Made by a program: the position numbers and the translations under genes
Shown: piece after piece, positions 3-18,846 of the stretch
Numbering within the stretch: position 1 is the stretch's first letter
How the letters are laid out: every line of letters begins with the position of its first letter
Origin: an uncultured virus (IMG/VR IMGVR_UViG_2814123061_000003)
Lineage: Duplodnaviria; Heunggongvirae; Uroviricota; Caudoviricetes
Length of the DNA stretch: 20,000 bases
Direction: 5' to 3' (one strand)
IMG/VR virus record: IMGVR_UViG_2814123061_000003
The notes under the pieces: generated by a model
What the model was told of the DNA's origin: nothing
Seen by the model: only the letters and a program-made list of their open reading frames with translations
The model's database searches: none

Positions 3-635
3 GTTGATTTTATGAAAGGATATGAACCTGATTACTATGAAAATGACAGCCTACAAAGTGGTGCTTTAGTCGAACTTCAACCAGGGCAGAACGTAACGAG
101 TGTAAACCCAAATGGGGCAACAGATGGTATTACCGAATTCGTTAATGCTCAGATGCAACAGATCGCTATGTCTCTTGGTATTACTGAACAATCGCTAAGT
201 GGTAGTACTGCTAATGCGTCATTCTCAGCAGCGAAGCTAACAGATCGCCTACAACGTCAAACATTTAAAACACGTACAAATGCTTTAACCACATTCGTAC
301 TAAAACCAATTTATTCACGTTGGCTAAAAGCTGAAATGTTACGTAATAAGGGCTTGAACCTTAATTTTAGTGATTTCGATAAATTAGTAAACGCTAAATA
401 CGTTAGTGAATTCGTTGAATCACTTGATCCTCTTAAAGATGTACAAACACAGGTATTAATGATCGATAACAAGATCAAAAGCCGTTCTATGGTCGTTTCT
501 GAATTTGGCTATGACCCATATCAAGTACTGAAAGAAATTGAACTGGAGGAAGCACAAACAATAAATACTACAAAGGAAGTTATTCAGGATGAAGAAACCA
601 CTAACGAGGGAACTAAACCTACAGAAGATAAATAA
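3..635 (+). CDS. Portal protein, lambda-like family (5'-truncated by window edge)
   Basis: Frame is open to the window start. Motifs LQPGQ, IAMSLGI..QSLSG...ASFSAAKL and DPLKDV resemble lambda gpB-type portal C-termini. Lies directly upstream of the protease gene. Confidence 0.88.
   Translation, partial: VDFMKGYEPDYYENDSLQSGALVELQPGQNVTSVNPNGATDGITEFVNAQMQQIAMSLGITEQSLSGSTANASFSAAKLTDRLQRQTFKTRTNALTTFVLKPIYSRWLKAEMLRNKGLNLNFSDFDKLVNAKYVSEFVESLDPLKDVQTQVLMIDNKIKSRSMVVSEFGYDPYQVLKEIELEEAQTINTTKEVIQDEETTNEGTKPTEDK
562..567 (+). promoter_or_regulatory. TAAATA late-promoter-like box for protease-capsid
   Basis: 27 nt before ATG 589. Confidence 0.55.
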
Positions 636-2502
636 AGCTATTGATGTAGAGAATCGAACAATTGAAATTGCCTTTGCCAGTGAAACACCTGTTAAACGTG
701 ATTTTGGTGAAGGGCTTGGTGTACTAAATGAAATTCTTAAATGTACTCCAGATGCCGTAAATCTTTCTCGCCTACTTAATGGTGCTCCATTACTAATAGA
801 ACATGATTTCACTCGACAAGTGGGAGTTGTATTAGATGCGAGAGTAGACAGTGATCATATATGCCGTGCGACGGTAAAACTATCTTCAATTCAAGCAGCA
901 GAAACTATTTTTACAATGATTCAGGAAGGTATCCGTACAAAGATTTCAGTAGGGTACAACATTGAATCATACCATATCGAAGGTGAAAACCTAATTGTAG
1001 ATCTTTGGTCGCCATATGAAGTAAGTAGCGTATCTGTACCCGCAGATGATTTTGTTGGTGTTTCACGTTCACTAAATACAAATGAAATTCAACTTAGTGA
1101 AGGTGAACAAATGGAACTTGAAAACCAACAAGAAGAACTACGAGTTAATGACGTAGAAGAAACAGAAGTTGAAGTACAAGAAAGTACTGAAACAGAAGAA
1201 GTAGAAGTATTAGAAACTCCAGAAGAAGTACAAGAACCTGTAGAAGAAACAGAAGTATTAGAAACCGAAGAAGTAGTACAAGAACCTATTGATGAAGCTG
1301 AAACAGAAGAAGTACAGGAAAGTACTGGTGATGTTGAAGTAGAAGCACAAGAACGTGCCGCACTAAATAAAGGTGAATCTGACGAATATCGAATTCGTGA
1401 GTTAACCGCTATTGCTGAACTCTACAACGTAGATAGTTCGGAAGCAATTAAATCAGGTGTATCAGTTGAACAGTTTAAACAGGAAGTTCAAACCAGATCC
1501 CTAAATAAAGAAACAAATCTAATTAACAAGGATGTTAATCTTATGAAAAAAAATGTAATTGGTGAACTAATCCGTAGTATCAACGAAGATAACTTTGATT
1601 CTGTAAAGGTTGAACTTGAAAAAGGTCAACGCGGTTTCAAAATGGATTTTTCACGTGCTCTTGGTGCTAATACCGATACTCAAACAGCAGCAGGTACAGT
1701 TAAAACTGTTTATGCGGATTCTTATCTAACCGCTCTATTGGCTCAATCCATTCTTGGTAGCCTAAATCCAACTATCTATAGTGGCCTTGCTTATCGTGGT
1801 GTACTTTCTATTCCTCGTCTAACTGGTCTAACTCCAGCGGCTCCAGGTAACTTTAAGTTCTACGAAGAAGGTGATGCGGTAACAGAATCTATTTCTAACT
1901 TTGATTCAATAAAGCTATCTCCAAAAATGTTCGCGGGTTCTGTACCAGTAACTAAGCAACTAATGCTAAGTTCTGATACCGCAGCTACTTTTGTTCAAGA
2001 TGCCCTAATCCGCTATGCGGCTAATGGTCTTGAAGCTCAGATCTTCTCTACCCTACAGGCAGCTATTCCAGAAGTGGAAACCGCAGCAGTAGGTACTATG
2101 ACCGTAGCAGACGTACAAGAAGCTATTAAAGCACTTGGTGTTGCTAACGTTGATGTACGTTCTTGTGTCGCAGTCATGCACCCAAGTACATTGGCTAAAC
2201 TACGTCAAACCGCAGTAATGGGTAACACCGCAGCCGTATCTATGGTTGAAGGTCATCGTTTTGATATGTGGCTAAACGATGAAGTACGTGTAATTGAATC
2301 TACCTTTGTTGAAGCTGATTCTGTAATCATCGGTGATTTCCGTAACCTAATCATTGCTAACTGGTCAGACGGTCAAGAAATTGATGTAGACACTACTACT
2401 CACCGTGCCGCACAAATTACTGTATTCCGTTCATTCCAGTACTTAGCAACCGCTATTGCTCATGATGAAGCGTTTGTAAATCTAAAAATTAAATCCGCTT
2501 AA
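589..2502 (+). CDS. Fused prohead protease (HK97/S78-like), acidic scaffold linker and major capsid protein
   Basis: N-terminal motifs LLIEHD..QVG, ISVGY and EVSSVSVPAD are typical of HK97-type proteases. Central Glu-rich linker. C-terminal HK97-fold-like segment (EEG, LSPK, MHPST, IIGDF). SD AAGGA at about 573-577. Confidence 0.9.
   Translation: MKKPLTRELNLQKINKAIDVENRTIEIAFASETPVKRDFGEGLGVLNEILKCTPDAVNLSRLLNGAPLLIEHDFTRQVGVVLDARVDSDHICRATVKLSSIQAAETIFTMIQEGIRTKISVGYNIESYHIEGENLIVDLWSPYEVSSVSVPADDFVGVSRSLNTNEIQLSEGEQMELENQQEELRVNDVEETEVEVQESTETEEVEVLETPEEVQEPVEETEVLETEEVVQEPIDEAETEEVQESTGDVEVEAQERAALNKGESDEYRIRELTAIAELYNVDSSEAIKSGVSVEQFKQEVQTRSLNKETNLINKDVNLMKKNVIGELIRSINEDNFDSVKVELEKGQRGFKMDFSRALGANTDTQTAAGTVKTVYADSYLTALLAQSILGSLNPTIYSGLAYRGVLSIPRLTGLTPAAPGNFKFYEEGDAVTESISNFDSIKLSPKMFAGSVPVTKQLMLSSDTAATFVQDALIRYAANGLEAQIFSTLQAAIPEVETAAVGTMTVADVQEAIKALGVANVDVRSCVAVMHPSTLAKLRQTAVMGNTAAVSMVEGHRFDMWLNDEVRVIESTFVEADSVIIGDFRNLIIANWSDGQEIDVDTTTHRAAQITVFRSFQYLATAIAHDEAFVNLKIKSA
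1073..1078 (+). promoter_or_regulatory. TAAATA box for the internal scaffold start
   Basis: 38 nt before ATG 1111. Confidence 0.5.
1111..2502 (+). CDS. Putative internal in-frame start giving a scaffold-capsid product (MELENQQEE...)
   Basis: In-frame ATG at 1111 at the protease/linker boundary, SD-like AAGGTG at 1100-1105, TAAATA at 1073-1078. Confidence 0.55.
   Translation: MELENQQEELRVNDVEETEVEVQESTETEEVEVLETPEEVQEPVEETEVLETEEVVQEPIDEAETEEVQESTGDVEVEAQERAALNKGESDEYRIRELTAIAELYNVDSSEAIKSGVSVEQFKQEVQTRSLNKETNLINKDVNLMKKNVIGELIRSINEDNFDSVKVELEKGQRGFKMDFSRALGANTDTQTAAGTVKTVYADSYLTALLAQSILGSLNPTIYSGLAYRGVLSIPRLTGLTPAAPGNFKFYEEGDAVTESISNFDSIKLSPKMFAGSVPVTKQLMLSSDTAATFVQDALIRYAANGLEAQIFSTLQAAIPEVETAAVGTMTVADVQEAIKALGVANVDVRSCVAVMHPSTLAKLRQTAVMGNTAAVSMVEGHRFDMWLNDEVRVIESTFVEADSVIIGDFRNLIIANWSDGQEIDVDTTTHRAAQITVFRSFQYLATAIAHDEAFVNLKIKSA
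1150..1345 (+). repeat. Degenerate GAA-rich repeats encoding the acidic EETE/EVQE linker
   Basis: Recurring units such as GAAGTACAAGAA, GAAACAGAAGAAGTA and GAAGTATTAGAAAC. Confidence 0.8.
1502..1507 (+). promoter_or_regulatory. TAAATA box for the internal capsid start
   Basis: 41 nt before ATG 1543. Confidence 0.55.
1543..2502 (+). CDS. Putative internal in-frame start giving the major capsid protein (319 aa, MKKNVIGEL...)
   Basis: In-frame ATG at 1543, SD AAGGA at 1528-1532, TAAATA at 1502-1507. Size fits an HK97-fold capsid protein. Confidence 0.65.
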   Translation: MKKNVIGELIRSINEDNFDSVKVELEKGQRGFKMDFSRALGANTDTQTAAGTVKTVYADSYLTALLAQSILGSLNPTIYSGLAYRGVLSIPRLTGLTPAAPGNFKFYEEGDAVTESISNFDSIKLSPKMFAGSVPVTKQLMLSSDTAATFVQDALIRYAANGLEAQIFSTLQAAIPEVETAAVGTMTVADVQEAIKALGVANVDVRSCVAVMHPSTLAKLRQTAVMGNTAAVSMVEGHRFDMWLNDEVRVIESTFVEADSVIIGDFRNLIIANWSDGQEIDVDTTTHRAAQITVFRSFQYLATAIAHDEAFVNLKIKSA

Positions 2503-2513
2503 TGGTGAAATAA

Positions 2514-2813
2514 ATGAGAGCATTTTTTAGTAACTCACAATCAGAGTCACTACTTAATGCTTTTGGTGAAAAGCTCGTCATTGTTCAAGATGGTGTATCA
2601 ATAACGATTACCGCAATTTTTGAACAAGACGAGCTTTTTTTCGATGATAGTAAAACTACCGTAACATATTTTAGTGCTAAGTCAGGAATTAAACTAAATA
2701 GCACCTTCACGATTGATAACACCGAATACGTAGTAAATAGAATAGATGATGATACGAGCGGTATCTCTAACTATCACTATGTTCGCAAGATCGATTTAGA
2801 AGAGGAAATATAA
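2514..2813 (+). CDS. Head-tail joining/head closure protein (lambda gpFII-like)
   Basis: 99 aa directly after the capsid gene. Beta-rich with TIDNTEYVV..IDDD.SG pattern. Confidence 0.65.
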   Translation: MRAFFSNSQSESLLNAFGEKLVIVQDGVSITITAIFEQDELFFDDSKTTVTYFSAKSGIKLNSTFTIDNTEYVVNRIDDDTSGISNYHYVRKIDLEEEI

Positions 2814-2814
2814 T

Positions 2815-3252
2815 ATGTTCACGGCAGACTATTCAATAAGAAAGTATTTGATTAATAAATTAGCAGTGATTGTTAATTTACAATATCCATCAAAAGCCTC
2901 AGTAGATAATACTACAATGGTTTACATTGGTGATTCTTCTGTACAACGTACACAGATAGCTAAAGCAAATCAAATTGTAAACAATCAAATCGTACCTTCA
3001 ACTATTAGAAATTTATGTGAATTTCGAGTTGAGTTTGTAGCTGTCGGACAATCATTTAAAAGTGCTTCAGATGAAATAGAAAAGATTCTTGAAGCACTTT
3101 ATACATCTGGTTTCTTTGATGAACTAAACCAGCAACTTCCAATGCCATTATTCAATATCCGTATTGAAGATAGCCTAATGACTACTCAAGCCGAAGCAAC
3201 GGAAACCGCTTATGTACACACGCAAACTCTATCTTTTAGCTATGGGGAATAA
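2815..3252 (+). CDS. Putative tail terminator (gpU-like)
   Basis: 145 aa. Assigned from its position before the tail-tube-type genes and its alpha/beta pattern. Confidence 0.5.
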   Translation: MFTADYSIRKYLINKLAVIVNLQYPSKASVDNTTMVYIGDSSVQRTQIAKANQIVNNQIVPSTIRNLCEFRVEFVAVGQSFKSASDEIEKILEALYTSGFFDELNQQLPMPLFNIRIEDSLMTTQAEATETAYVHTQTLSFSYGE

Positions 3253-3254
3253 TT

Positions 3255-4946
3255 ATGGCTCAAACATTTTTAGGGAATCTAACTACAGTATGGATTAATA
3301 CCGATACAACCAACGTTGATCCAAATGTCCGTACTTTTGTTCAAGTAGAAAACCTTTCAGCATTTCCAAGTTTTAGTGAATCAACTTCTGTTTCAACTGT
3401 AGAAACATATGATAGTACTTACACCTCTAAAGTAGCGGGTGATAGTTCATATGGTGATATGACTATTTCAGTTAACTATATTCCAGGTGAAAACGCCGTA
3501 CTTGATTCTGTTGTTGATTCTCAGCAATTAGTACAGGTCAAGGTAGAAATGCTTGATGAAGGTTCAAACGATACTACCGTAAACTATGTGCTTTACAACG
3601 GTTACTTATCCAGCGTTTCCGATACGTCGGATATGGATCAGGTTGTTACCCGCTCATACGTATTCACACCAGAAAGCCAGGTATCAGCAGGTATTCTTGA
3701 TGAATCAGTAGTTGAACTCTATCGCGGTGATTGGGGTGTTGGTTCGAACGGTAACGAGTTTCCAAGCTATCAAGGCCGTGACGGTAACTCATTCGTTAAG
3801 ATCGCAGCAGCCAACGCACCAACAGGTGTTGATATGTTGGGTATCACTAACCTTGATGGTTCTAACGGTACTCAATTGGTAATGAGCAAAACCGGTACGC
3901 CAGTACTCAACTTTCGTAACTTCTCAACAGCAAGTAACGGGGCATGGTACAAGGTCTACACCAGTGCTGATAAACCAACGCTAACAGAACTTGGTGCGGC
4001 AGCCGCTACCGATCTCAGTTACTACGTACCAATCACACGTACTGTCAATGGTAAAGCACTTACAGCTAACATTACTCTGGTAGCAGCAGATATTAGTGAT
4101 GTTTACTCTAAGACCTACATTGATTCAAACGTAGTACCGAAAGTGTTTCAATTAAACGGACACGCATTATCAGGAACGGCGTTGAACTTAGTAGCGGCAG
4201 ATATACTTGATGTGTATTCACAGACACAGGCTAATAATACCTTTGTAGCTAAAACAGTTACTGTTAACGGATTGCCTTTAAGTAGCAATATCACACTAAC
4301 GGCAGCACAACTTACTGATATGGCATCTTTAGCATATAGTAATAGTACTTATGTGCCTAAGACGTTCTTAATCAATAACAAGCCATTATCTGGTACTAAC
4401 ATTCAATTAGTAGCAGCAGATATTAGTGATGTATATTCCCGTACTGAAAGCAACGGATTGTTTGCGTTACGTATCACTACAATTAACGGTTATGCTTTAA
4501 ACAGTAACGTAACCTTGAACTATAACGATGTAGGAACGTATTCAAAAGCACAAATTGATGCCAAAGATGCCGCACTACAAGCGAACATTGATACCAAAGT
4601 AACTATCACTCAAGACCTTCTAACAATAAATAACGTAGAAGATACATTAGAACTTGATATGTCTGATGGTAAACGTGTTTTCAAAGCAACTCTAACAGCA
4701 CCAGTAACACAACTCAGTGTTATAAATGCGAGTGGAAGTAATTTAAACAGCCAAACTATCACGATGTTATTAACACAAGGAACAGGGGCAAATAAAATTT
4801 CATGGCCTTCTAATGTTAAATGGTCTTATGGGCGTGAACCAGTATTAACCTTTACGAAAGATTCAATTGATGTAATTCAATTCTTGTCAATAGATGGAGG
4901 AAGTACCTGGTACGGCTCCTTACTAATGGCGGATCTACAAGAATGA
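3255..4946 (+). CDS. Tail-tube-domain protein fused to fibre repeats and a C-terminal adaptor domain
   Basis: First ~140 aa align by eye to the 7822..8295 tail tube protein (F.GN, TF..VE...AFPS, D.T..VN..PG, QVKV, NGY.SS, D.D.VVTR). Five NG..L...I.L.AAD...VYS repeats follow. C-terminal WPSNVKW...P.LT...D...DGG.TWYG domain is of a kind seen in tail fibre proteins. Confidence 0.8.
   Translation: MAQTFLGNLTTVWINTDTTNVDPNVRTFVQVENLSAFPSFSESTSVSTVETYDSTYTSKVAGDSSYGDMTISVNYIPGENAVLDSVVDSQQLVQVKVEMLDEGSNDTTVNYVLYNGYLSSVSDTSDMDQVVTRSYVFTPESQVSAGILDESVVELYRGDWGVGSNGNEFPSYQGRDGNSFVKIAAANAPTGVDMLGITNLDGSNGTQLVMSKTGTPVLNFRNFSTASNGAWYKVYTSADKPTLTELGAAAATDLSYYVPITRTVNGKALTANITLVAADISDVYSKTYIDSNVVPKVFQLNGHALSGTALNLVAADILDVYSQTQANNTFVAKTVTVNGLPLSSNITLTAAQLTDMASLAYSNSTYVPKTFLINNKPLSGTNIQLVAADISDVYSRTESNGLFALRITTINGYALNSNVTLNYNDVGTYSKAQIDAKDAALQANIDTKVTITQDLLTINNVEDTLELDMSDGKRVFKATLTAPVTQLSVINASGSNLNSQTITMLLTQGTGANKISWPSNVKWSYGREPVLTFTKDSIDVIQFLSIDGGSTWYGSLLMADLQE
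4023..4566 (+). repeat. Five tandem ~36-37 aa fibre shaft repeats
   Basis: Units begin YVPITRTVNG, VVPKVFQLNG, FVAKTVTVNG, YVPKTFLINN and FALRITTING. An identical 23-nt stretch GTAGCAGCAGATATTAGTGATGT occurs at 4080-4102 and 4410-4432. Confidence 0.85.
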
Positions 4947-7765
4947 TAAGAAAACAAAATATCAGCAATGCCCAACAGATGATTGAAGGGCATTGGAAAT
5001 TTTTAGAACGTAATACTGGTTTAGTTAATGATAATAAAACAGATCACTATGTACTAAACCCACAAAACGTTATATGTAACAACAGGCATTTTATAGCGGA
5101 AACGGGATGGGAAGCACAACCGGACGGTGATGCAACCACAGAAGGACAATCCTTAGCAATTCTTGGTGCTATCTATGCGTATCAGGCAACCAAAGAACCG
5201 TACTACCTACAACGTGCTAAAGACTTTTTCAACGCCTATCACATGGCGTTCTTCCGTGGTGTAGCGTTTCCTGATCCACCTGATGGTTCATTGCGTTGTA
5301 ACTGGATCTGTAACGGTAAGGCTCCAGTACTGGCACATTACCCATTAGATCCAGAGTATCCAACTCACGGCGGGTTCAAGGGCGTATTGTTCACATGGAC
5401 GAACGGACAAACACAGATACCTCATGGTTCACCTAACTACGGTGAATACCTCGATGCTGTATGGTTTGCCTTTCCAGAACGGGCGGGTCTTGGTTGGAAC
5501 CAGGTTAACGCAACTGCCTACGCATGGTTAGCCAGTGAAGATAGCATTGATTGGGATACTAAAGCCCCTACTTATGATGTTGATTGGATTGTTGACCGTA
5601 CAGGCCGAAAGGTAGATAGCAATGGTGATGTACTGGCAGAAGGGCTAACAAGTCAGATCGGTACAGTCCAGCTCAAGGACACGTCTATAAACGGCAATTA
5701 CCGATTCAATTACGCAACTAAAAACCCTGTATCAGAGGGTGGTTATCTCATGGGGCGTAATGAGCGTTGGCACAACAGGCCAGTAAACGTACCTATTGAT
5801 AACTATGGTACGCTCGACTTTTCTGATAACGCCTCAGATGCTGAATTGTGGTTCTGTCAGGCATGTAAATTACTATGGGATATTACAGGCGAACGTATCT
5901 ATTACTTAGCATGGCAGAATTCACTAATTACTTGTACTGGTTATTCTGATATTGATAAATTTGATATGTTCTTTCGTAAGAGTGCTATTGCTTTAACGCC
6001 TTTTACAGATGGTATCTCATACGATTATTTCTATCCAAGTGATCAAGTAGCATCATATTCACGTGATTCAGATGGCTATATTGTCATAAATCAAAGTGCC
6101 TCAGCACAAACAACACTTGAACAACAATCTATATGGTTCAAGTTTAATAATAGTTCATCATTCCATGTTGAATATAGTGGTGTTGATACAACTGGTAAGC
6201 CGTTAAGCCTTGCTGTAGCTATGACAGTTAATAAAACAAAAACAGAAGATGGTGCTATTAGATACCGTTGCGGTTTACCTATTACTAATACAGATAATAG
6301 TATTATTTCAATGGATATTCCAATGAACCACTTTACCAGAATTGCTAAACCTGATGGTGGACAGTACTTAACCGCAGATATGCGTATGTTATCTGACTAT
6401 GGGGATAATACAGTAACTTCACTTCAATATGTTTCCGGTATCGCTGGAACGTACTATGACAACGTGATTTCTACTACTATGGATTCTGACGGTAGTTCTA
6501 CAGTTGGATTCTGGATCTTTGATGATGAAACACAGGACTTAAACAGCTTCACATACAGAACATATGCTGATGATTTTAATATCCGTATTGTTGATGATCT
6601 TGGTTGGCGTTGGTGGACTATGCTACCAGCAAGTAACGGGGCATGGGTAACACAAACGTTTAATGTACTGGATTTTAAATTGAGTTCTTATCAACCGGAT
6701 CATGAAGAAGGTGATGAACAGCCCGGACAACCAACACTAACAGGACGTGAAGAGTTTACGCTATTACTTGATACCGATCCGGTTGATGGTGTCTCAGGGC
6801 GTATTGACTGGTATTGTGTTAACGATTTGCCAGCACTTTATAATGATGGTGGTACAGGGGATTATTCAGTACTGGTTTCTCTAACTTTCAACGATAGTAC
6901 CAGTAGTGGATATACAGCACGTTTAGGTGATTGTGTAATTCGTAATTACATGCTTGATAGTTTGTCATATACACCCGGACTAATACCATTTAGTAACATC
7001 ACAGATCCATATGCTCAACTGTATTCCGGTTGGCGTGGTCTACCATATCCAGGTTATCAACTACCCGCTATATGGTGTTTCAAAGGTACTACAATTGATC
7101 AAACCAGACTAAATAATAGTATTAAGTTCTTATGTGATGCTCAAGATTGGTTTACTAATAAATTCCATCCTGCTTTACCTGGTCCATGTGCTCAGGCTTA
7201 TGTATGGAACCGTCAGGACGCATTAGCATATTCACCTGATGGACAACCGGATCAATTCATTATGCAGCACTGGTATGAAGAAGCATGGTCAGGTTATGAA
7301 CCTCGTGCGTTCTTTGGTGGTTGTGATGTGGTCCATGAACTATATCAACGTGGTGATTATGCTATTCCGCAGAACATTATTACGTACTGTAATAACTGGA
7401 TGAATTACTTAAAGTGGTTCATGAAAAATAATGATGGTCACGCACCAACACGATTTAAAGATACAGGTGAAGTTATCTATGATGGCTTTACAGGTCATAT
7501 GTCTGGTTTGTGGCTTGCTGGTGCTTCAATGATGGCAATAGCAGGTTATCCAGATCACGAATTACTTGATTTACTATTCGCGGAAATTCAACAGAACTAT
7601 AACGTAGTTTCAGCTAATCACGTAATGAATGGTGGCTGGTCATCAGCTATCAGAAGTGGAACACCTACTACACCACAGAACAACTCTATGTTCTTTGGAT
7701 TCTATACAGGTGAACTACTAAGAGGTTTAGCACTTTACATGAAGTACTACAACCAACATATATAA
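4943..7765 (+). CDS. Large tail-associated GH8-like glycoside hydrolase with inserted carbohydrate-binding-like domains
   Basis: TTEGQSLA (E67) and NASDAELW (D299) resemble the GH8/BcsZ motifs TSEGQSY and SASDGD.W. Trp/Tyr-rich. ATGA overlap with the upstream fibre gene. Confidence 0.65.
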   Translation: MIRKQNISNAQQMIEGHWKFLERNTGLVNDNKTDHYVLNPQNVICNNRHFIAETGWEAQPDGDATTEGQSLAILGAIYAYQATKEPYYLQRAKDFFNAYHMAFFRGVAFPDPPDGSLRCNWICNGKAPVLAHYPLDPEYPTHGGFKGVLFTWTNGQTQIPHGSPNYGEYLDAVWFAFPERAGLGWNQVNATAYAWLASEDSIDWDTKAPTYDVDWIVDRTGRKVDSNGDVLAEGLTSQIGTVQLKDTSINGNYRFNYATKNPVSEGGYLMGRNERWHNRPVNVPIDNYGTLDFSDNASDAELWFCQACKLLWDITGERIYYLAWQNSLITCTGYSDIDKFDMFFRKSAIALTPFTDGISYDYFYPSDQVASYSRDSDGYIVINQSASAQTTLEQQSIWFKFNNSSSFHVEYSGVDTTGKPLSLAVAMTVNKTKTEDGAIRYRCGLPITNTDNSIISMDIPMNHFTRIAKPDGGQYLTADMRMLSDYGDNTVTSLQYVSGIAGTYYDNVISTTMDSDGSSTVGFWIFDDETQDLNSFTYRTYADDFNIRIVDDLGWRWWTMLPASNGAWVTQTFNVLDFKLSSYQPDHEEGDEQPGQPTLTGREEFTLLLDTDPVDGVSGRIDWYCVNDLPALYNDGGTGDYSVLVSLTFNDSTSSGYTARLGDCVIRNYMLDSLSYTPGLIPFSNITDPYAQLYSGWRGLPYPGYQLPAIWCFKGTTIDQTRLNNSIKFLCDAQDWFTNKFHPALPGPCAQAYVWNRQDALAYSPDGQPDQFIMQHWYEEAWSGYEPRAFFGGCDVVHELYQRGDYAIPQNIITYCNNWMNYLKWFMKNNDGHAPTRFKDTGEVIYDGFTGHMSGLWLAGASMMAIAGYPDHELLDLLFAEIQQNYNVVSANHVMNGGWSSAIRSGTPTTPQNNSMFFGFYTGELLRGLALYMKYYNQHI

Positions 7766-7768
7766 ATA
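7761..7768 (+). promoter_or_regulatory. TATAAATA box (full T4 late consensus) for the major tail gene
   Basis: Overlaps the upstream stop codon and is followed by a hairpin at 7776-7798. Confidence 0.65.
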
Positions 7769-7821
7769 AACAGAAGGGGTATCAAGGACTGATGCCCCAA
7801 ATATATAAAGGAATATTAAAT

Positions 7822-8295: not shown

Positions 8296-8299
8296 GTAC

Positions 8300-8305
8300 T
8301 AAATA
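8300..8305 (+). promoter_or_regulatory. TAAATA box for the chaperone gene
   Basis: Intergenic, 36 nt before ATG 8336. Confidence 0.6.
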
Positions 8306-8335
8306 CTACAAACCAACTAACAAGGATAAAGCGAA

Positions 8336-11443: not shown

Positions 11444-11446
11444 ATA
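11439..11446 (+). promoter_or_regulatory. TATAAATA box for the distal tail/tip genes
   Basis: Overlaps the tape measure stop codon and is followed by a hairpin at 11452-11474. Confidence 0.65.
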
Positions 11447-11494
11447 TCATATGGCCCACATGGATTGTGGGCTAACTATTAAAGGAATAATAAT

Positions 11495-12049
11495 ATGTTA
11501 AATAACACTCTTATTAGTGAGTTCATGTTAACGGACAATATACCGCAATACCAAAACCAAACATGGACAGGTGAAACTATTACACGTGTTGTTGGTTCGC
11601 AGTACTTTACCCTTAGTTTCAAAGTTACCTTAAACAAGATGAACCGTGCTGAACTCGCTAACTTCTACGCTTTATATGGTCAGGGCAAACCGTTCTCTAT
11701 GCCTCTTGGATGGTGGAGTACATACAACGGTACTCAAACATCACAAGTACAGGCAACAGCAGCAAGGGCAGCGGGGGCAACATCCATTGCCGTTAATGCT
11801 AATACACTTGAAGTTGGTACGTTAATTCAATTCAACGGACACAAGAAACTATACCGAATCATAGCCAACACTGGCAACGTGATTAGTATCTTCCCTGGAT
11901 TAATCAAAAACATCCAACTTGGGGAAGTAATGAAATATGACAATATTCAAGGTTCATTTATTCTTACACCACAGAACGCAGCATATCAGATGCCAAGTAC
12001 AAATATTATGGAAGTGACAATAAATGCAACCGAAAACATCAGAGGTTAA
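11495..12049 (+). CDS. Distal tail protein
   Basis: First gene after the tape measure, 184 aa. SD AAGGA. Confidence 0.65.
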   Translation: MLNNTLISEFMLTDNIPQYQNQTWTGETITRVVGSQYFTLSFKVTLNKMNRAELANFYALYGQGKPFSMPLGWWSTYNGTQTSQVQATAARAAGATSIAVNANTLEVGTLIQFNGHKKLYRIIANTGNVISIFPGLIKNIQLGEVMKYDNIQGSFILTPQNAAYQMPSTNIMEVTINATENIRG

Positions 12050-12052
12050 TTT

Positions 12053-12697
12053 ATGTCTATTCCAAGTAATGTACTAACTAATGCGGATCTTGTCGCGTAC
12101 TGGAACCTTACACGAGGCGATAACAAAACCGTACTAACAGAAAAAGAACTATATCAATGTGGTGTTATGGTAAAGCTAATAGATGTACTTCCACCTACCG
12201 GAAGTAACATATATCTAACTGATGCCATTGCCGATCAAAACTATAATGGGATTAACTATAAGTCTGTACCTGATTTCCTTGATTCATCATTTGCTAACTA
12301 TGTAGAAAAGAACCAAATTAATAATAACGGTACTTCTTTAAAAGTAAGTAATGTAAGCCAGGATTATCTATCTATGGCGTTACGTGGATTGTGGAATGAT
12401 GCAAAAGTTAATATCTGGATGGGAATTGTTAACCCAGCTACAGGAGGTATTTTATATGCCTATCGTATGTTTAGTGGTTACATTGATTACTTTAGTTCAG
12501 ACTTTAACAACACAGCAGGTAATACCACAAATGAAACAACAGTAAATCTAAATTCATTGTGGAAGAAGTTAGACCAAACACAACGCCTGTTATCAAGTAC
12601 ATCAGTACACCAATCATTACACACTGGTGATAAGTTCTTTGACCTAATAGGAATACTAAATAGTTCAGAACAATTCTGGAAGAGTAGTAAGAAATAA
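12053..12697 (+). CDS. Baseplate hub/minor tail protein (gpL/DUF2163-like)
   Basis: Synteny. YLTD, FSGYID and HQSLHTGDKFF patterns. Confidence 0.6.
   Translation: MSIPSNVLTNADLVAYWNLTRGDNKTVLTEKELYQCGVMVKLIDVLPPTGSNIYLTDAIADQNYNGINYKSVPDFLDSSFANYVEKNQINNNGTSLKVSNVSQDYLSMALRGLWNDAKVNIWMGIVNPATGGILYAYRMFSGYIDYFSSDFNNTAGNTTNETTVNLNSLWKKLDQTQRLLSSTSVHQSLHTGDKFFDLIGILNSSEQFWKSSKK
12657..12662 (+). promoter_or_regulatory. TAAATA box upstream of the gpK-like gene
   Basis: 40 nt before ATG 12697, within the upstream CDS. Confidence 0.4.
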
Positions 12698-13092
12698 TGA
12701 AAAACGGATTTATAACAGAGTACCTAAGTAGTTTAGTTGGTGAACCTTTAGTGTACGGTACTAATGATTGTCATATCATGGTGCTAACAGTAATTGATAT
12801 GATCACCGGTAGTAAATACCGTGATGAAATCTACCAGAAATACACAACACCAACAGCAGGTAGAAAATACGCAAAAGCAAACTGTAGTTATTCTACTCTA
12901 CATCTATTGTGTAAAGAAAAAGGCCAATTAGTAACTGAACCACTTGATGGGGATATCATCATTTCATCAGGTCACAGTACAGTTTATTGGCGTGGGAAAG
13001 TAGTAATTTTATCAGAAGATAAATCTAACTATATCGTTTCTCAATATATCCCAAATGAAAAAGACAAAATATACAGATTTAAAGGGGAATAA
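12697..13092 (+). CDS. Tail tip assembly protein, NlpC/P60-like (gpK-like)
   Basis: YGTNDC...GDII...H motif. TAATG coupling to the upstream gene. Confidence 0.7.
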   Translation: MKNGFITEYLSSLVGEPLVYGTNDCHIMVLTVIDMITGSKYRDEIYQKYTTPTAGRKYAKANCSYSTLHLLCKEKGQLVTEPLDGDIIISSGHSTVYWRGKVVILSEDKSNYIVSQYIPNEKDKIYRFKGE

Positions 13093-13094
13093 CT

Positions 13095-16000
13095 ATGGCA
13101 GTAGCAGCAGTTGCCGTAGCTATTATCGCAGGGGCATCAGCAGCGGCAGCAGCATACGCAGCAGGTTTAGCTTTAGCAGCAGTAGTAGCTATAGGTATTG
13201 GTACAGCAGCACTATCTTACATTAGTTCATCACAGATGATGAATGTAGGCCAAATGGGGGTAACGTATCCGAGTACGGGTAGTAACAATGCCCGATCAAC
13301 ATCACCAAGTACTGGAATACCGATTTCATACGGCGGTTCTAACCGCAACGCAACAGAGGTAGCTTATAACAAGTTAGGCTCTATCGTCGTATGGCAGAAC
13401 GTCTATAAAGGTACTTCAAATCAGTTATGTACGGTTCACGCGATCAGTATCGGTGAAATCGGGCAAGTACCAGGGGAACAATCACAAGGCGTAATCAAGC
13501 AGATCTTTTTTGATAATGCTCCGGTACTCATGGATGGTGCGTACATCACCACAGAGGGGATCGTGCCTACCTCAATGATGATTGAGAAGTACCGCAAATA
13601 CTTACAGATTGAGATACGTTTCGGTAAGCCGTCCTACGGTGGTTCTATGACGCTTGCCCGTCAATATGGCGGTAGTCAATGGACTGACAACATGCGTGGT
13701 GATGGTCTTGTACAGATCTGTTCCGTAATCAAGAAAACCAATGATTCATTGATTGATGGGATTCTAACGAACCAGAACTATACATTATCGGTAGAAATGC
13801 GTGGACGTATGATCTATGACTTAACTGATAATGTACGTAAACCAAGTTCAAACCCACCAAGCCAACTATATGACTTTATCACTAATACAGAATTTGGTTT
13901 TGGGCTTGATCCTAATGATATTGATATTACCAGTTTCCGTAATATGGCAAACTATTGTGCTCAGAATCATTTCTATTCCAATGGTAATATTCAATATGAT
14001 AAATCCTTTAAGGAAAACATTGAAAATATTCTACAAACATTTGGTGGTGTACTTTATGAATCAAACGGTAAGTACTATCTAACCGTTGATGCTCCAGATA
14101 TTCCAAGTGTACATTTTGATGAAACAAATATTATTGGCAGTGTGAATATCACAACGGGTTCTAAGTCTGACTATTTTAATACAATGGACAGTACCTATAC
14201 AAACCCAGGTAATGACTATTCACAAGATATTATCCGTTATCCAAGTGATGCCATTAGTAACGCATCCATTGCTAAAGATGGTTATATTATCAAGAAGGAT
14301 TTAAACTATCTTTGGTTACAGGATAAAAATCAGCTTGCTATTCTTAGTAACATTGAATTGCTAAAATCTAAGTACATTACGAACACGATTACTTTCAATA
14401 CCTATGTAACAGATATGAAAGTATATGATGTGTTTACAATTGATTTTAAAGAAGCTGGATTTAGTAATAAAAAGTACAGATGTATTCAACGTACTGTACC
14501 AATGACCGTAGATAAAGCAGGCATTATCCAGATCACCGCGATTTCATATGATGATGGTATATATCAAGGAAAAGATCCGGGACAATTCCCACAAGATGGA
14601 TTGACCAATCTACCTAACCCAACATACGTAGAACCGCCAAGTAACCTACAGGCTCAACGTTTAGGGGCAACGGCATCAGGTAACACCGTTCTATTAACAT
14701 GGGATCTTAGTCAGGATACAACTGTACGTGGTTATAAGATTCGTTATAAACGCAGTGATTCCAGTGTTTGGATCAGCATTGGTAACGTAGGGCAGTACTC
14801 TACAAGTTTTGAGATATTAAATCTTCTATATGGGGTACAGTACGATTTTGCTATTGAGGCGTATAACACATTAGGTTATTCATCGGATTTAGTAGCTATC
14901 TATAATCAAACACCACAAGTTATATTCGCATTACCGAAGATTACTAACCTTGATATGGTGAATGATGATGTAGGTTTAAACCAGACTTATGCTCAAGATT
15001 TTATTTTACGTTGGGATGATCAGGCTAACATAGCCGTAAATGGTAAAACATTTGCTGATTTCTTCAAACATTATGAAATTCGTGTGTATGACCGATACAG
15101 GAACTACATCACATCGTACTACACCACTACAAGCAACTGGACGTACTCATATTCAATGAATACCAGTGATGGCCTTAGCCGTTACCGTGTGTTTGGGATC
15201 ATCGCTCATGGTTGGGGTACTGGTATCTATAGTGAAGAAGTTCAGATTGAAGTTAGTAACCCACAACATCCACAGTTGTTAGGTGTAAATTTGAAGAGTG
15301 GTTATGATTCCGTGTTCATTGACTGGACTGAATCAAACGTACCGGATTATGCGGGAATCGTTCTGCAAATCGCACTTGATGAGGGTTTTAGCTCAGGGTC
15401 GAAGTACTTTAGCAGTGCTAACCGTTATTCAGCATCGTTTGGTATTGAAGATGGTTCATGGTTCGCACGAGTAGCAGCCTATGACGTGTTCGGACAGGAT
15501 GAATTGGTATGGTCGCCTACTATCGGTTTTAACCAGAACACGAAGGTTCCTTACAGCAAATTGAACGAAGATGTTATTGATGGCCTACTTAACAGTGATA
15601 CGGCTACTGGCATTGTTGAGAAACAGATCGTAGATGAACTTGGTTCACGCTGGCAGCTACAGGTATCAAACAACGGTAACGTAACGGGCATTGCTTTAGC
15701 CGCAGATGAAAAAACATCAGTGTTTACCGTAATGGCGGATCGCTTTAGTGTTATCAGTACGGACAGTGCCAAACTATCAGACAGGGTTTATCCGTTTGTG
15801 GTTCAGGGTGGTAAGACTTACATCAACTCAGCGGTGATAGCATCAGCGAGCATCAATGAGGCTATGATCAATAACCTTTCCGTTTCACGTGCGAAAATTC
15901 AGGATGCCGCAATAGACAACACGAAGATTGCCAATGCCGCTATTCGTAATGCACATATCATGAATGGTGAAATTGACTCAGCGAAGATCAGCCAGCAGAT

Positions 16001-16631
16001 ACAATCCAGTAATTGGGATGGTACGAACGGTTGGATGATTAACAAGAACGGTACAGCCAACTTTGGTAACGCTACTATTCGCGGTACGATTTTTGCGAAC
16101 AGCGGAGTACTCAACAACGTTACTATCAATGAAAACTGTAACATTCTTGGTACTCTAAGTGCCTCACGTATCGTAGGTGACATTTGCCGTCCTCAGTCTA
16201 CAGGTATAGCATCAGTGCCGTTTATTTTCGGTTCACATACTGTATCAGGTGGTCAGGCCGCTAATGATCCAGTAGCTTACCAACACTATGTAGCGTTGCG
16301 TATACGTGGTGAAGATTTCGATCGTATCCTTGATAGTAATATGACTATCACACTTACTTCATTTGAGCGTCAGTACTTCTATATTCGTATGGGTGGTGAT
16401 GGCATTGGTTTAACAAACTTAGCTTTCGTTGATGCTGGTAACAATGGACATAACACACCATATACTTTCCCAATCAATGGTATCTATGTACCTGCTGTTG
16501 GTCGTGGCAAGTGGAATTATATCTATGTTATGTGTACTACATCGCGTTCTGGTTTAGCTTCACTTAATGTACCTTCATTATTGAATGCGTTTATATATCG
16601 AGCGGGGGATCAACCTTTATATAATGCGTAA
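13095..16631 (+). CDS. Tail tip/central fibre host-specificity protein (gpJ-like)
   Basis: 1178 aa. Ala-rich hydrophobic N-terminus, IPISYG, SSNP, FN3-like PPSNL..LTW..GYKIRYK, a DUF1983-like FTVMADRF..PFVVQGGKTYINSA segment, and GWMINKNG. Confidence 0.9.
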   Translation: MAVAAVAVAIIAGASAAAAAYAAGLALAAVVAIGIGTAALSYISSSQMMNVGQMGVTYPSTGSNNARSTSPSTGIPISYGGSNRNATEVAYNKLGSIVVWQNVYKGTSNQLCTVHAISIGEIGQVPGEQSQGVIKQIFFDNAPVLMDGAYITTEGIVPTSMMIEKYRKYLQIEIRFGKPSYGGSMTLARQYGGSQWTDNMRGDGLVQICSVIKKTNDSLIDGILTNQNYTLSVEMRGRMIYDLTDNVRKPSSNPPSQLYDFITNTEFGFGLDPNDIDITSFRNMANYCAQNHFYSNGNIQYDKSFKENIENILQTFGGVLYESNGKYYLTVDAPDIPSVHFDETNIIGSVNITTGSKSDYFNTMDSTYTNPGNDYSQDIIRYPSDAISNASIAKDGYIIKKDLNYLWLQDKNQLAILSNIELLKSKYITNTITFNTYVTDMKVYDVFTIDFKEAGFSNKKYRCIQRTVPMTVDKAGIIQITAISYDDGIYQGKDPGQFPQDGLTNLPNPTYVEPPSNLQAQRLGATASGNTVLLTWDLSQDTTVRGYKIRYKRSDSSVWISIGNVGQYSTSFEILNLLYGVQYDFAIEAYNTLGYSSDLVAIYNQTPQVIFALPKITNLDMVNDDVGLNQTYAQDFILRWDDQANIAVNGKTFADFFKHYEIRVYDRYRNYITSYYTTTSNWTYSYSMNTSDGLSRYRVFGIIAHGWGTGIYSEEVQIEVSNPQHPQLLGVNLKSGYDSVFIDWTESNVPDYAGIVLQIALDEGFSSGSKYFSSANRYSASFGIEDGSWFARVAAYDVFGQDELVWSPTIGFNQNTKVPYSKLNEDVIDGLLNSDTATGIVEKQIVDELGSRWQLQVSNNGNVTGIALAADEKTSVFTVMADRFSVISTDSAKLSDRVYPFVVQGGKTYINSAVIASASINEAMINNLSVSRAKIQDAAIDNTKIANAAIRNAHIMNGEIDSAKISQQIQSSNWDGTNGWMINKNGTANFGNATIRGTIFANSGVLNNVTINENCNILGTLSASRIVGDICRPQSTGIASVPFIFGSHTVSGGQAANDPVAYQHYVALRIRGEDFDRILDSNMTITLTSFERQYFYIRMGGDGIGLTNLAFVDAGNNGHNTPYTFPINGIYVPAVGRGKWNYIYVMCTTSRSGLASLNVPSLLNAFIYRAGDQPLYNA

Positions 16632-16637
16632 TAAATA
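16632..16637 (+). promoter_or_regulatory. TAAATA box for the TM/coiled-coil gene
   Basis: First bases of the intergenic gap, 41 nt before ATG 16673. Confidence 0.6.
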
Positions 16638-16672
16638 CTATTACCAAAATATATAATATAGGGAAATTCTTA

Positions 16673-16942
16673 ATGGATATTGGGACACTTCTTGCTCTGG
16701 TTATTAGTGGGTTAGGCGTTTTATATTCTATCTTCCGTGACAATACAAAGGATACTACTGATTTATTAAGTCGTGTATCCTACCTTGAAACTACCATTGC
16801 GGTACAAGATAGTAACATTACACGTCTAAGCGACGAACAAGACAAGATGAAAGAAACCTTGCGAAACCTTGAAATTCAAATTCACGAATTGGATATCAAA
16901 CTTGAAAGGATTATTACTATTCTTGAACAATCAAAGCAGTAA
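16673..16942 (+). CDS. Small single-TM coiled-coil protein, possibly lysis-related
   Basis: N-terminal hydrophobic helix followed by a heptad pattern. Adjacent to the lysozyme. Confidence 0.5.
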   Translation: MDIGTLLALVISGLGVLYSIFRDNTKDTTDLLSRVSYLETTIAVQDSNITRLSDEQDKMKETLRNLEIQIHELDIKLERIITILEQSKQ

Positions 16943-16944
16943 TT

Positions 16945-16984
16945 AAAAAGGGATAGTACCGTAATTGATACTATCCCTTTTTTT
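16945..16984. terminator. Bidirectional intrinsic terminator
   Basis: AAAAAGGGATAGTA-10 nt-TACTATCCCTTTTT between two convergent genes. Confidence 0.9.
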
Positions 16985-17429
16985 ACTTATTAGTTAGTTG
17001 TGCGATCATCGCATTAACTCTATTTGGTGTCTGACGATACCATAAACTATCTTTTGCTTGTTTGATTGCTTCCGTGTAGTTGGCATCACGTAGTGCTTGA
17101 ATCATCTTTTTAAACTTCATCGTTCCAGATAGGCCAAGTTGAAAAATCATGATGATCATGAAGTCTTGCCAATCTTTAGGAATGGTTAGGTTTAGTTTAC
17201 TTAGCTGGCTTGTTGCTATGGCTATATCTTTATCAAGTAGTCGAAGTACTTCAATCTCATTAATACCATTATTGAAATTCTCGTTTGGTAGTACCTTATG
17301 TCCGTATCCTACGGTTAAGAATCCTTCACTATCTTTATATGGATAATACTTGTTGTTTCTAAAGTACCCCATACGTATTTGATATGCTCGTGAACCCTCA
17401 TAATCTATGAGTCGTGTTTTTATATCCAT
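16983..17429 (-). CDS. Endolysin, T4 lysozyme-like (GH24)
   Basis: EG...YKDSEGFLTVGYGH and SLWYRQTPNR correspond to T4 lysozyme YKDTEGYYTIGIGH and SRWYNQTPNR. Confidence 0.92.
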   Translation of the reverse strand: MDIKTRLIDYEGSRAYQIRMGYFRNNKYYPYKDSEGFLTVGYGHKVLPNENFNNGINEIEVLRLLDKDIAIATSQLSKLNLTIPKDWQDFMIIMIFQLGLSGTMKFKKMIQALRDANYTEAIKQAKDSLWYRQTPNRVNAMIAQLTNK

Positions 17430-17433
17430 TGAA

Positions 17434-17439
17434 TAAATA
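17434..17439 (+). promoter_or_regulatory. TAAATA box for the GIY-YIG to holin operon
   Basis: 35 nt before ATG 17469. Confidence 0.65.
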
Positions 17440-17461
17440 CCTTATGATAATTTTTATAAGG

Positions 17462-17467
17462 TATTTA
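17462..17467 (-). promoter_or_regulatory. Minus-strand TAAATA box for the endolysin
   Basis: 38 nt before the lysozyme ATG. The only minus-strand copy found by manual scan. Confidence 0.65.
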
Positions 17468-17468
17468 T

Positions 17469-17900: not shown

Positions 17901-17909
17901 GGAATTGAT

Positions 17910-18518: not shown

Positions 18519-18519
18519 G

Positions 18520-18843: not shown

Positions 18844-18846
18844 AAT

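Follow-up and report, generated by a model that had tools for sequence, protein, structure and literature searches.

When a lambda-like phage carries one six-base word over and over on the strand of its late genes and almost never on the other, a simple question arises: is this word part of a promoter, and if so, what reads it? The question is posed by a stretch of 20,000 nucleotides (nt) from an uncultured member of the Caudoviricetes (IMG/VR record IMGVR_UViG_2814123061_000003), here called the window, which, judging from its genes and relatives, is the late region of a prophage-like element. A first-pass annotation, made from the letters alone, described it as a siphovirus of lambdoid architecture apparently wired to late promoters of the kind that phage T4 reads with its sigma factor gp55, the word in question being TAAATA. 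Here we argue that TAAATA, mostly in the forms TATAAATA, AATAAATA and ACTAAATA, is the core of a promoter class of the T4 late type, lacking a -35 element and used throughout the element family, a reading to which we assign a probability of about 0.65. Its basis is sequence statistics, placement, conservation and predicted RNA folds, from which promoter function and start sites are inferred. Close relatives include the provirus record G002, 97% identical, and the complete genome of a lysogen, G001, with a copy that is 96% identical.

A word purged from one strand

TAAATA occurs 20 times on the plus strand of the window and once on the minus strand, in line with the manual scan of the first-pass annotation (about 20 copies against one). 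The raw asymmetry ranks only ninth among 851 hexamer pairs, because nearly all genes run one way; gene direction being a confounder, it is the comparison with shuffled genes that is decisive. In shuffles that keep the protein and the codons of each gene, the plus-strand count is ordinary (20 against 17.5 expected with synonymous-codon shuffling and 16.7 with codon shuffling), and the total for both strands, 21, lies under the dinucleotide-shuffle mean of 30.8. It is the complementary word, TATTTA on the plus strand, that stands out: one copy against 14.1–14.9 expected, with none of 1000 shuffles as low, makes it the most depleted of the 1223 hexamers that have an expectation of at least 6 (Poisson 9e-6; about 0.01 after correction). 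Thus, against a background of this kind, the depletion of the minus-strand word holds (1 against 14) and an excess of plus-strand copies does not.

TATTTA is absent from the plus-strand coding sequence in all three frames (0 against 4.9, 3.6 and 4.3), so that no codon-pair effect is at work; its one-mismatch neighbours are near expectation; and, among the 64 hexamers made only of A and T, it is the lowest in the coding sequence (ratio 0, the next being 0.27), with ATAAAT, AATAAA and TAAATA the three highest. Codon usage, amino-acid order and dinucleotide composition are ruled out as causes by the shuffles. A host-wide bias is ruled out as well: in 253 kb of host genes sampled from G001, TATTTA is found 35 times against 32.4 expected, and hence the bias belongs to the element.

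The relatives tell the same story. We compared 14 related loci from viral contigs (capsid 77–99% identical), with gene starts set by our own rules for open reading frames (ORFs); the loci share ancestry, and their counts are not independent. They carry 10–30 plus-strand and 0–4 minus-strand copies of TAAATA, and sense TATTTA is absent from the plus-strand genes of 13 of them (2.8–9.0 expected), the remaining locus having two against 7.5. A more distant comparison is provided by G001, the element of which is a mosaic with a sharp joint at window position 2512: downstream of it, its genes are 92–99% identical to those of the window, and upstream, the terminase-to-capsid module is only 36–44% identical at the protein level. 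In this module, too, sense TATTTA is missing (0 against 5.4); since synonymous sites are saturated at such divergence, the purge must be maintained by selection. The suggestion of selection against antisense copies is supported by the count, by the empty coding sequence and by the persistence of the purge in diverged relatives.

Placement and conservation of the boxes

The ten boxes that the first-pass annotation had assigned to gene starts are exactly where it put them, 27–59 nt ahead (Table 1). Positional enrichment, which it had proposed as a check, is clear: 7 of the 20 plus-strand copies lie 20–65 nt upstream of 18 curated plus-strand starts, in windows that cover 4.1% of positions (binomial 1e-5), and TAAATA ranks second of 972 hexamers. 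The only word ahead of it, AATACT, overlaps the 3' side of the box, and the next-ranked words, ATACTA, AAATAT, AAATAC and ATAAAT, overlap it as well; the motif may be written roughly as (A/T)(A/C)TAAATA(CTA). Its first eight positions (WMTAAATA) are matched by 14 of the 21 copies, including all six gap boxes, with TATAAATA accounting for three copies, AATAAATA for five and ACTAAATA for six. The three full TATAAATA copies, two on the plus strand (7761 and 11439) and one on the minus strand (17462–17469), all lie in gaps and point at a gene.

No conserved -35 element accompanies the box: the only words enriched 20–65 nt before starts are its own overlapping parts. Sites resembling sigma-70 promoters are scarce in the window (42 against 69.8, standard deviation 8.8); one weak site, matching 9 of 12 positions, overlaps a box, and there is none at the other gaps. 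That the box is itself a sigma-70 -10 element is rejected: TATAAT and its complement are equally depleted, by about half (4 against 7.8 and 6 against 11.5), and, by reasoning, the key -7 T or -11 A is missing from the box whatever the register.

Five of the six true gaps hold a box (five of seven if 8627–8661 is counted), the next best hexamer reaching three of six, and the true gap without a box follows the terminator. A box had been said to open every gap of more than 30 nt that precedes a start between 7765 and 17469; this is so with the exception of 8627–8661, in front of ORF 8662, where there is none. ORF 8662 lies in the -1 frame of the tail-chaperone gene and may be its frameshift extension. 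Just inside the ORF that follows the chaperone gene, a 17-bp stem is followed by a T-rich tract (8671–8709), which may be part of a frameshift or attenuation signal.

The genes headed by boxes include those for the capsid, major tail, chaperone, Dit, post-J and lysozyme proteins and, in relatives, also the first gene of the early operon. In six whole elements, 9–13 of the 30–43 plus-strand copies lie in the 5–12% of the sequence that is non-coding, mostly 29–60 nt before an ATG; in G002, all nine non-coding plus-strand copies are 29–54 nt before one. The TAAATA core at 7763 is kept in 13 of 13 relatives with alignable anchors, with flanks that differ and a following spacer that is replaced in the 85%-identical group; the box at 11441 is kept in 12 of 12, the one at 16632 in seven of seven elements, and the one at 12657 in the sole relative locus that reaches so far. 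In the divergent gap at 17432–17469, both boxes are kept in seven of seven elements, and the 22 nt between them come in three versions. The sole leftward box, a full TATAAATA, stands before the sole leftward late gene in all seven; being conserved and well placed, this copy is no accident.

Nested boxes in the capsid gene

Two further boxes lie within the gene for the protease-scaffold-capsid fusion. The starts at 1111 and 1543 that had been assigned to them are not those of separate ORFs; they are in-frame internal ATGs of the 589–2502 gene and, as internal starts, they are supported by comparison. A head gene of only 37% identity, found in G001 and in an Escherichia coli copy of the element, has boxes at matching places, 29–35 and 41 nt before methionines that align with Met175 and Met319 of the window. 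At the first site, the box of the diverged gene is GATAAATA, made of Ile-Asn codons where the window has Leu-Asn, before the aligned in-frame methionine; since the box is built from different codons, the constraint acts on the DNA. At the second site, ACTAAATA stands 41 nt before the aligned methionine (residue 319 of the window, 309 of the E. coli copy), which has the Shine-Dalgarno (SD) sequence AAGGA. The internal boxes fit nested scaffold-capsid and capsid products, each with its own putative entry point. Nested in-frame products are well known from the C and Nu3 genes of lambda, and the T4 record notes internal initiation in genes 17 and 21; in these, as in the element, in-frame internal starts of head genes have SD sequences of their own. 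The difference is that, in the element, each internal start would also have its own putative promoter.

RNA structures around the boxes

In T4, the late box spans -13 to -6 and transcription starts 6 nt after it, as given in the available text of PMC1524935; we accordingly take the last base of the box plus 6 as the predicted start. Two of the gap boxes are followed at once by a predicted hairpin (Table 1). The one at 7776–7798 has seven pairs, two of which show compensatory changes on both sides among 11 sequences, and the one at 11452–11474 is nearly invariant in the relatives, so that no covariation signal is possible. Hairpins at the 5' end are known to stabilise mRNA in E. coli. As terminators they are rejected, no U tract following on the plus strand.

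At other sites the box is part of the fold. Five elements show this at their first early gene, with four versions of the sequence that are unrelated to one another: the box sits in the loop of a predicted hairpin, and the SD sequence in its 3' arm. In the divergent gap, the boxes together with CCTT/AAGG form a 12-nt inverted repeat; as RNA, this repeat pairs each SD sequence (AAGG) with CCTT, and a transcript from the predicted start would lack the 5' arm. Pairing is weaker at 16673, where the SD region of the read-through RNA is predicted to pair with sequence upstream of the box. A precedent exists in T4 genes e (lysozyme), soc, 49 and I-TevI and in mobE of Aeh1, where a hairpin hides the SD sequence on read-through RNA and a late promoter within or beside that hairpin gives RNA without the 5' arm (PMC3014915, available part). 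As far as that text goes, the likeness extends from the masking itself, predicted for the first early genes of the five elements and for the lysozyme/GIY-YIG pair, to the classes of gene, lysozyme and homing endonuclease; the difference is that the box of the element sits in the loop and that masking here is predicted from folds.

Likeness to T4 and its relatives

At the late promoters of T4, with TATAAATA at -13 to -6 and gp55, gp33 and the gp45 clamp as their machinery, virion and lysis genes are preceded, as here, by an 8-bp box that has no -35 element. The commonest natural variant of the T4 box is AATAAATA, A being found at -13 in 9 of 50 T4 sites (PMC2988020, available part). Among relatives, the available text of PMC1524935 gives CTAAATA for Aeromonas phage Aeh1 and A or T at -13 for RB49, KVP40 and S-PM2, and that of PMC5259590 gives an ATAAATA late motif, together with a gp55-like sigma, for the jumbo phages CBB and GAP32, relatives of RaK2. 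TAAATA, the word that is strand-biased in the element, is invariant in all the variants so described. The pattern (A/T)(A/C)TAAATA used above is the union of the T4 consensus, the AATAAATA-type variant and the Aeh1 CTAAATA, and the Aeh1 form, ACTAAATA, makes up 6 of the 21 copies in the window. GAP32 and CBB infect Cronobacter, a host genus of the element too. Aeh1, RB49, KVP40, S-PM2, CBB and GAP32 encode a gp55 homologue, whereas none was found in the element.

A genome known to use such promoters carries the same strand signature in a weaker form. In 35 kb of T4 late genes, sense TATTTA is found 16 times against 32.5 expected (standard deviation 4.2), the second lowest of the 64 A/T hexamers, and TATTTATA not once against 1.8; in 28.5 kb of early and middle genes, the shortfall is mild and affects both orientations (13 against 19.3 and, for sense TATTTA, 18 against 24.6). 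Boxes of T4 also embed the TAA stop codon of the upstream gene, as at genes 17/18 and 21/22 in the sample examined, just as two boxes of the element do. There are differences as well. The antisense depletion is about half in T4 and total in the element; T4 is a 170-kb virulent myovirus, whereas the element is integrative, lambda-like and 34 kb long, with no gp55 family or sigma domain detected; and, as against 27–59 nt from box to ATG in the element, 9 of 14 sampled T4 boxes lie within 40 nt of a start (at 22–36 nt), the other five being 81–4458 nt away. Of the claimed wiring to T4-type late promoters, one half is supported, the box behaving like a promoter core of this class (the 14 of 21 fit and the like depletion in T4), and the other half is not, no reader of the gp55 type having been found in five element records or in a lysogen genome.

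A further system for comparison is rV5: the available text of PMC3606486 describes a TggTAaAAtA motif before late genes and reports no gp55, gp33 or gp45 homologues. On that showing, rV5-like phages and the element have in common a T4-late-like motif without a recognisable reader, and they also share a tail protein of 940 amino acids (aa), at 55% identity; they differ in the motif core (TAAAATA against TAAATA) and in that the rV5-like phages are virulent and about 140 kb long.

Taken together, these likenesses suggest the following scheme. RNA polymerase carrying a box-recognising factor would start about 6 nt downstream of each box, which would give separate entry points for the capsid gene and its two nested products, the major tail, chaperone, Dit, post-J and endonuclease genes, and the leftward lysozyme gene; two of the boxes contain the stop codon of the gene upstream, as in T4. 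Some transcripts would begin with a hairpin. Elsewhere, read-through RNA would be masked by a hairpin over the ribosome site, and the box-initiated RNA, free of the 5' arm, would alone be translated. Leftward copies, we propose, are purged because six bases suffice to fire antisense RNA.

The element and its genes

The family consists of integrative, virion-coding, lambda-like elements of about 34 kb and 36–39% G+C. Their hosts are Enterobacter, Cronobacter, E. coli and related bacteria, and the names that go with homologues of one element protein are those of Enterobacter, Cronobacter, Klebsiella and Shigella. Relatives include copies of 96–99% identity. In G001 the element spans about 34 kb of 33–42% G+C between flanks of 49–61%, the coding sequence of the host having 56.4%. 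Among 5426 complete E. coli genomes one carries it (NZ_CM132639.1), inserted in ybhA, the gene for pyridoxal phosphatase; there (L052 33817-35029) the element brings a replacement copy of the gene, and the truncated host remnant adjoins. Cultured phages are all distant, the best capsid match being about 30% identical. A megablast search of phage records with the window gave no match.

Table 1. Candidate boxes, predicted RNA structures and genes of the window (box distances run from the first base of TAAATA to the start codon)
Feature	Position	Strand	Remarks
Box AATAAATA	560..567	+	TAAATA at 562; 27 nt before ATG 589 (protease-scaffold-capsid); inside the end of the portal gene
Internal box ACTAAATA	1071..1078	+	TAAATA at 1073; 38 nt before in-frame ATG 1111; SD AGGTG
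Internal box CCTAAATA	1500..1507	+	TAAATA at 1502; 41 nt before in-frame ATG 1543; SD AAGGA; putative start of capsid-domain product
Full box TATAAATA	7761..7768	+	TAAATA at 7763; 59 nt before 7822, heading the major tail protein gene; embeds TAA stop 7763-7765 of the 940-aa tail protein gene
Box ACTAAATA	8298..8305	+	TAAATA at 8300; 36 nt before ATG 8336 (tail chaperone)
Full box TATAAATA	11439..11446	+	TAAATA at 11441; 54 nt before 11495, heading the Dit gene; embeds TAA stop of the tape-measure gene
Box ACTAAATA	12655..12662	+	TAAATA at 12657; 40 nt before ATG 12697; within the preceding gene
Box AATAAATA	16630..16637	+	TAAATA at 16632; 41 nt before ATG 16673; immediately downstream of the J-like stop codon
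Two boxes back to back in a divergent 39-nt gap	17432..17469	both	Plus: AATAAATA (17432-17439), TAAATA at 17434, 35 nt before 17469 (SegE-like GIY-YIG); minus: TATAAATA (17469-17462), TAAATA at 17467, 38 nt before 17429 (lysozyme)
Gene stretch without TATTTA in coding sequence	589..19149	+	0 against 12.8 expected
Hairpin (predicted fold)	7776..7798	+	Begins 2 nt after predicted start 7774
Hairpin (predicted fold)	11452..11474	+	Starts at or within 1 nt of predicted first transcribed base 11452
Portal, lambda family, 3' end only	12-635	+	
Protease-scaffold-capsid fusion	589-2502	+	
Head-closure gene			After the 589-2502 gene
Tube-like protein with fibre domain	3255-4946		
940-aa tail protein	4943-7765	+	
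Major tail protein	7822 (start)	+	True start
Tail chaperones	8336 (first ATG)		Between major tail protein and tape measure
Tape measure	8981-11443	+	
Dit	11495 (start)	+	
Two baseplate proteins			Between Dit and J-like gene; ATG 12697 in this stretch
J-like tip protein	13095-16631	+	
Small post-J gene	16673 (ATG)	+	
T4-family lysozyme	16983-17429	-	Sole leftward late gene
SegE-like GIY-YIG endonuclease	17469-17900	+	
Three further genes, then terminator	17910-18518, 18496-18843, 18847-19149	+	Last genes of the block
Intrinsic terminator	19154-19173	+	Only strong one in the window; closes the plus-strand gene block

The lambdoid architecture that had been claimed is supported by the Nu1-like terS and gpA-type terL of the relatives, by the lambda-family portal, the protease-capsid fusion, the tape measure, Dit and the J-like tip of the window and by the presence of an integrase, which is a large serine recombinase and not of the tyrosine type. 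The recombinase lies to the left of the window in relatives, as do a short plus-strand operon, made up of small genes of unknown function together with homing-type nucleases (HNH or GIY-YIG), and a variable leftward cargo block (OLD-family nuclease, DuOB, mSLOG/DUF4326, DUF488). Within the cargo block of relatives there is an EAL-domain gene on the plus strand, and a Tlde1-domain gene and its small partner belong to their plus-strand operon. A conserved G+C-rich block resembling CGCGTAGTTTCGCCGCACCC lies just upstream of terS in every element whose head module is of the window type (L043 ~11150-11340; L052 ~9640-9805; equivalents in G002, G003 and G006) and is probably the cos site of the lambda-type terminase. 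In six elements, Pfam and PHROGs revealed no early-region genes of a CI/Cro-type switch, O/P-type replication or a Q-type antiterminator; most ORFs there are of unknown function, and such an absence is not proven. With a complete set of head, tail and lysis genes, the element differs from satellites that lack virion genes (P4-like, PICI, cf-PICI, PLE).

Proteins of 526 phage records match the 940-aa tail protein over 99% of its length, at 55% identity, and the best of them come from 141–148 kb rV5-like phages of Cronobacter, Enterobacter, Salmonella and E. coli. That the tail protein is shared with phages of this size is probably why CheckV gives low completeness (17–28%) to four of five related provirus records, the fifth having 84%. 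A scan of genome contigs gave one match, and that a partial one: in a metagenome-assembled genome labelled Sphingobacteriaceae (L027), a 75-kb contig with about 40% G+C has at its end a 112-residue fragment of the capsid gene, 96% identical. The fragment may be a binning artefact driven by the low G+C of the element and was not used as evidence.

RNA contigs of two studies cover 18260–19179, and just past 19179 their sequence departs from that of the window. The genes that lead up to the terminator (the end of 17910–18518, 18496–18843 and 18847–19149) seem to be expressed in uninduced cultures, in the manner of morons.

Weighing the promoter reading

Several observations weigh against reading TAAATA as a promoter core. 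The plus-strand count is at expectation, and therefore most copies within genes may be neutral. Conservation, so firm at 7763, 11441, 16632 and the divergent pair, fails in part at two sites: the box at 562, which is the weakest copy, survives in 7 of 14 relatives, those of the 85%-identical group having other sequence in its place, and the one at 8300 is kept in 10 of 12, the other two having lost two bases. Upstream of terS, a box is found in only three of six elements, as TATAAATA in G005, TTTAAATA in the E. coli copy and GATAAATA in G001, and it is absent from G002, G003 and G006. In two gap boxes, three of the six bases are those of a TAA stop codon. The leftward cargo genes are also poor in leftward boxes (8 against 20.3, from loci that are not independent), which does not follow a simple rule of sense and antisense. 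No transcript 5' end was seen: of the 24 runs listed, 12 are on record as RNA, and the four of the 24 that were examined (X4, X5, X10 and X13) are all assembled contigs, which cannot show starts. Contig depth over the late genes is 0–13 in most bins, against 123 and 1133 for 18260–19179, a level at which DNA carry-over and weak transcription are indistinguishable. Finally, neither a gp55-family protein nor sigma-70 region 2 nor any other sigma was found in the elements, and only two non-structural proteins are widely conserved.

We nevertheless consider a promoter core the best account, and the question becomes that of its reader. The first-pass annotation offered a gp55-like sigma encoded by the phage outside the window, and this finds no support. 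There is no match at E<=10 to phrog_234 (the gp55 family) in the whole lysogen genome G001 or in the element records G003–G006, and none to phrog_12791 or Sigma70_r2 (PF04542) in the element records G002–G006, five whole records in all. When the early ORFs of six elements were compared with Pfam and PHROGs, no sigma, replication initiator, repressor or antiterminator came up; nor did anything in these scans point to gp33 or gp45, at which no search was aimed by name.

Possible, at somewhat less than even odds, is a reader of another make: an unrecognised protein encoded by the element, be it a new sigma-like factor, an appropriator or some small activator, that would redirect the host RNA polymerase, the element then being an autonomous temperate phage with poorly annotated early genes. 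The same class of box precedes early plus-strand genes, so that some element or host factor must start the cascade. One candidate is a protein of 85–96 aa, present in every element examined except G006 and with 23 database relatives, all in the same hosts; it shares its wide conservation with a membrane peptide of 49–70 aa that is found in all five elements whose records reach that region. Another is an all-helical family of 153–198 aa in the early operon of G003, G005 and G006, to which a 174-aa protein of G001 bears only a marginal resemblance (E=0.029). Against the first candidate, the model of a 91-aa member (pLDDT 73) is beta-rich, its five strands and two helices resembling no solved structure, whether a sigma or anything else (none in the PDB at E<=0.001, nothing usable in the ESM Atlas). 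The helical family is not universal, and the model of a 153-aa member (pLDDT 56, too poor to trust) has no PDB match at E<=0.001; the 174-aa protein obtained from the ESM Atlas only weak hints (0.85–0.88) of an integrase N-terminus. BLASTP of two candidate proteins against T4 gp55 was empty, and the elements have no recognisable replication gene. That a T4-like motif can do without a recognisable gp55 is suggested by rV5, to the extent described in the available text of PMC3606486.

The other alternative of the first-pass annotation, a helper, appears somewhat unlikely. The boxes would be read by the gp55-type machinery of a co-infecting virulent phage (T4-like, RaK2-like or similar), which would make the element a satellite with a complete virion of its own that takes late transcription, and perhaps replication, from its helper. 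Host DNA is degraded in T4 infection and cytosine-containing DNA is not transcribed, two obstacles that would have to be overcome with a T4-like helper. Consistent with a helper are the want of a gp55, sigma, replication-initiator, CI/Cro or Q-like gene in six elements and of a phrog_234 match in the lysogen genome, and the G+C content of the element, 36–39% against 56% in host coding sequence. So are its affinities with large virulent phages: a lysozyme 45% identical to that of RaK2-like jumbo phages, the 940-aa tail protein shared with rV5-like phages of the same hosts, and homing-type nucleases, the GIY-YIG protein being about 33% identical to proteins of 136–177 kb phages (the best 15 of 32 records), genomes that we take to be T4-like. 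The cargo slot, with its OLD nuclease, DuOB, mSLOG and other conflict-type genes, varies as in known satellites, and CBB and GAP32, as far as the available part of PMC5259590 describes them, have an ATAAATA late motif and a gp55-like sigma. On the other side, nothing links the element to any particular phage, absent homology is weak evidence where most early ORFs are of unknown function, and rV5 appears, from the available part of PMC3606486, to manage its T4-like motif without gp55, gp33 or gp45. Genes common to virulent phages leave room for a helper and are just as compatible with an unrecognised factor encoded by the element; on balance, we slightly favour the latter.

A bolder form of the helper scenario, more doubtful still, makes the element a parasite of phages: an island with its own complete virion and with no replication genes, switch or late-transcription factor, which would remain silent until a virulent phage with T4-type late machinery infects, whereupon the helper polymerase would fire all boxes, the island would package itself, and its nucleases and defence cargo would act against the helper.

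Readings that dispense with a promoter fare much worse. It is very unlikely that UAUUUA is simply disfavoured in late mRNAs, for example as a nuclease site, with TAAATA after stop codons serving as termination or spacer context. The sub-words TATTT (19 against 43) and ATTT (110 against 155) are low too, a maximal-order Markov estimate made by hand from sub-word counts expects only about five TATTTA, A/T-only hexamers are low as a class (587 against 763 in shuffles), and two boxes do overlap TAA stops. However, within that class TATTTA is the extreme, with TAAATA and ATAAAT among the top three; the mRNAs of the leftward cargo genes of the same elements tolerate UAUUUA (25 sense copies against 28.3 expected); the sole sense UAUUUA tolerated in the window is exactly the leftward box; and placement before starts is not predicted at all.

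Least probable of all is restriction or another defence, with gap copies arising by chance in A+T-rich spacers: the neutral plus copies and nearly vanished minus copies, their scarcity in leftward genes too, as a rule of absolute strand predicts, the avoidance of other short words (GCGC 0 against 21; CTAG 2 against 51; TGCA, in a lineage-specific way, 12 against 82) and a second strand-specific gap (GCTGC 0 against 21 with GCAGC 46 against 31) speak for an orientation-biased site of the T7 kind, but this would leave unexplained the positional enrichment, the hairpins around boxes, the boxes kept at aligned sites of a 37%-identical gene and the inverse copy conserved in seven of seven elements, which would restore sensitivity. 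In T7, all EcoP15I sites (CAGCAG) are in one orientation, which lets the phage escape a Type III enzyme that needs inverted pairs. The element is alike in having an asymmetric hexamer on one strand; it differs in that TAAATA is placed before starts and has one conserved inverse copy. We know of no enzyme with a TAAATA site.

Other word biases are worth recording in their own right. CAGCAG itself is found 33:1 in the window, in repetitive coding sequence. In plus-strand genes CTGC is found 5 times against 43, and in the relatives L028–L041, GCTGC is found 0–8 times against 14–57 expected. A MotA box as the cause of this depletion of TGC words is rejected, TGCTT being at expectation (17 against 15.7). 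The avoidance of short palindromes is strong and extends to TCGA (24 against 48), and GTAC is enriched (163 against 108). The low TGCA count is that of the lineage of the window, the 77–87%-identical relatives having 58–103 copies per locus, and it looks like lineage-specific restriction avoidance.

Implications for temperate phages and their possible helpers

Late promoters of the T4 type are regarded as characteristic of virulent, gp55-encoding phages related to T4, and a literature search found no paper on such boxes in a temperate or integrative element, most subscription journals being outside its reach. Here, the same class of box appears to organise the expression of genes in an element that is lambda-like, looks temperate and passes from one enterobacterial genus to another. 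The complete loss of a six-base word from one strand provides a clean example of selection against spurious antisense promoters. Either there is a new, unrecognised way of reading this promoter class in temperate phages, or the elements are switched on by virulent phages. Should the latter be true, it would be a new satellite lifestyle, and therapy with T4-like phages could mobilise such islands together with their defence cargo.

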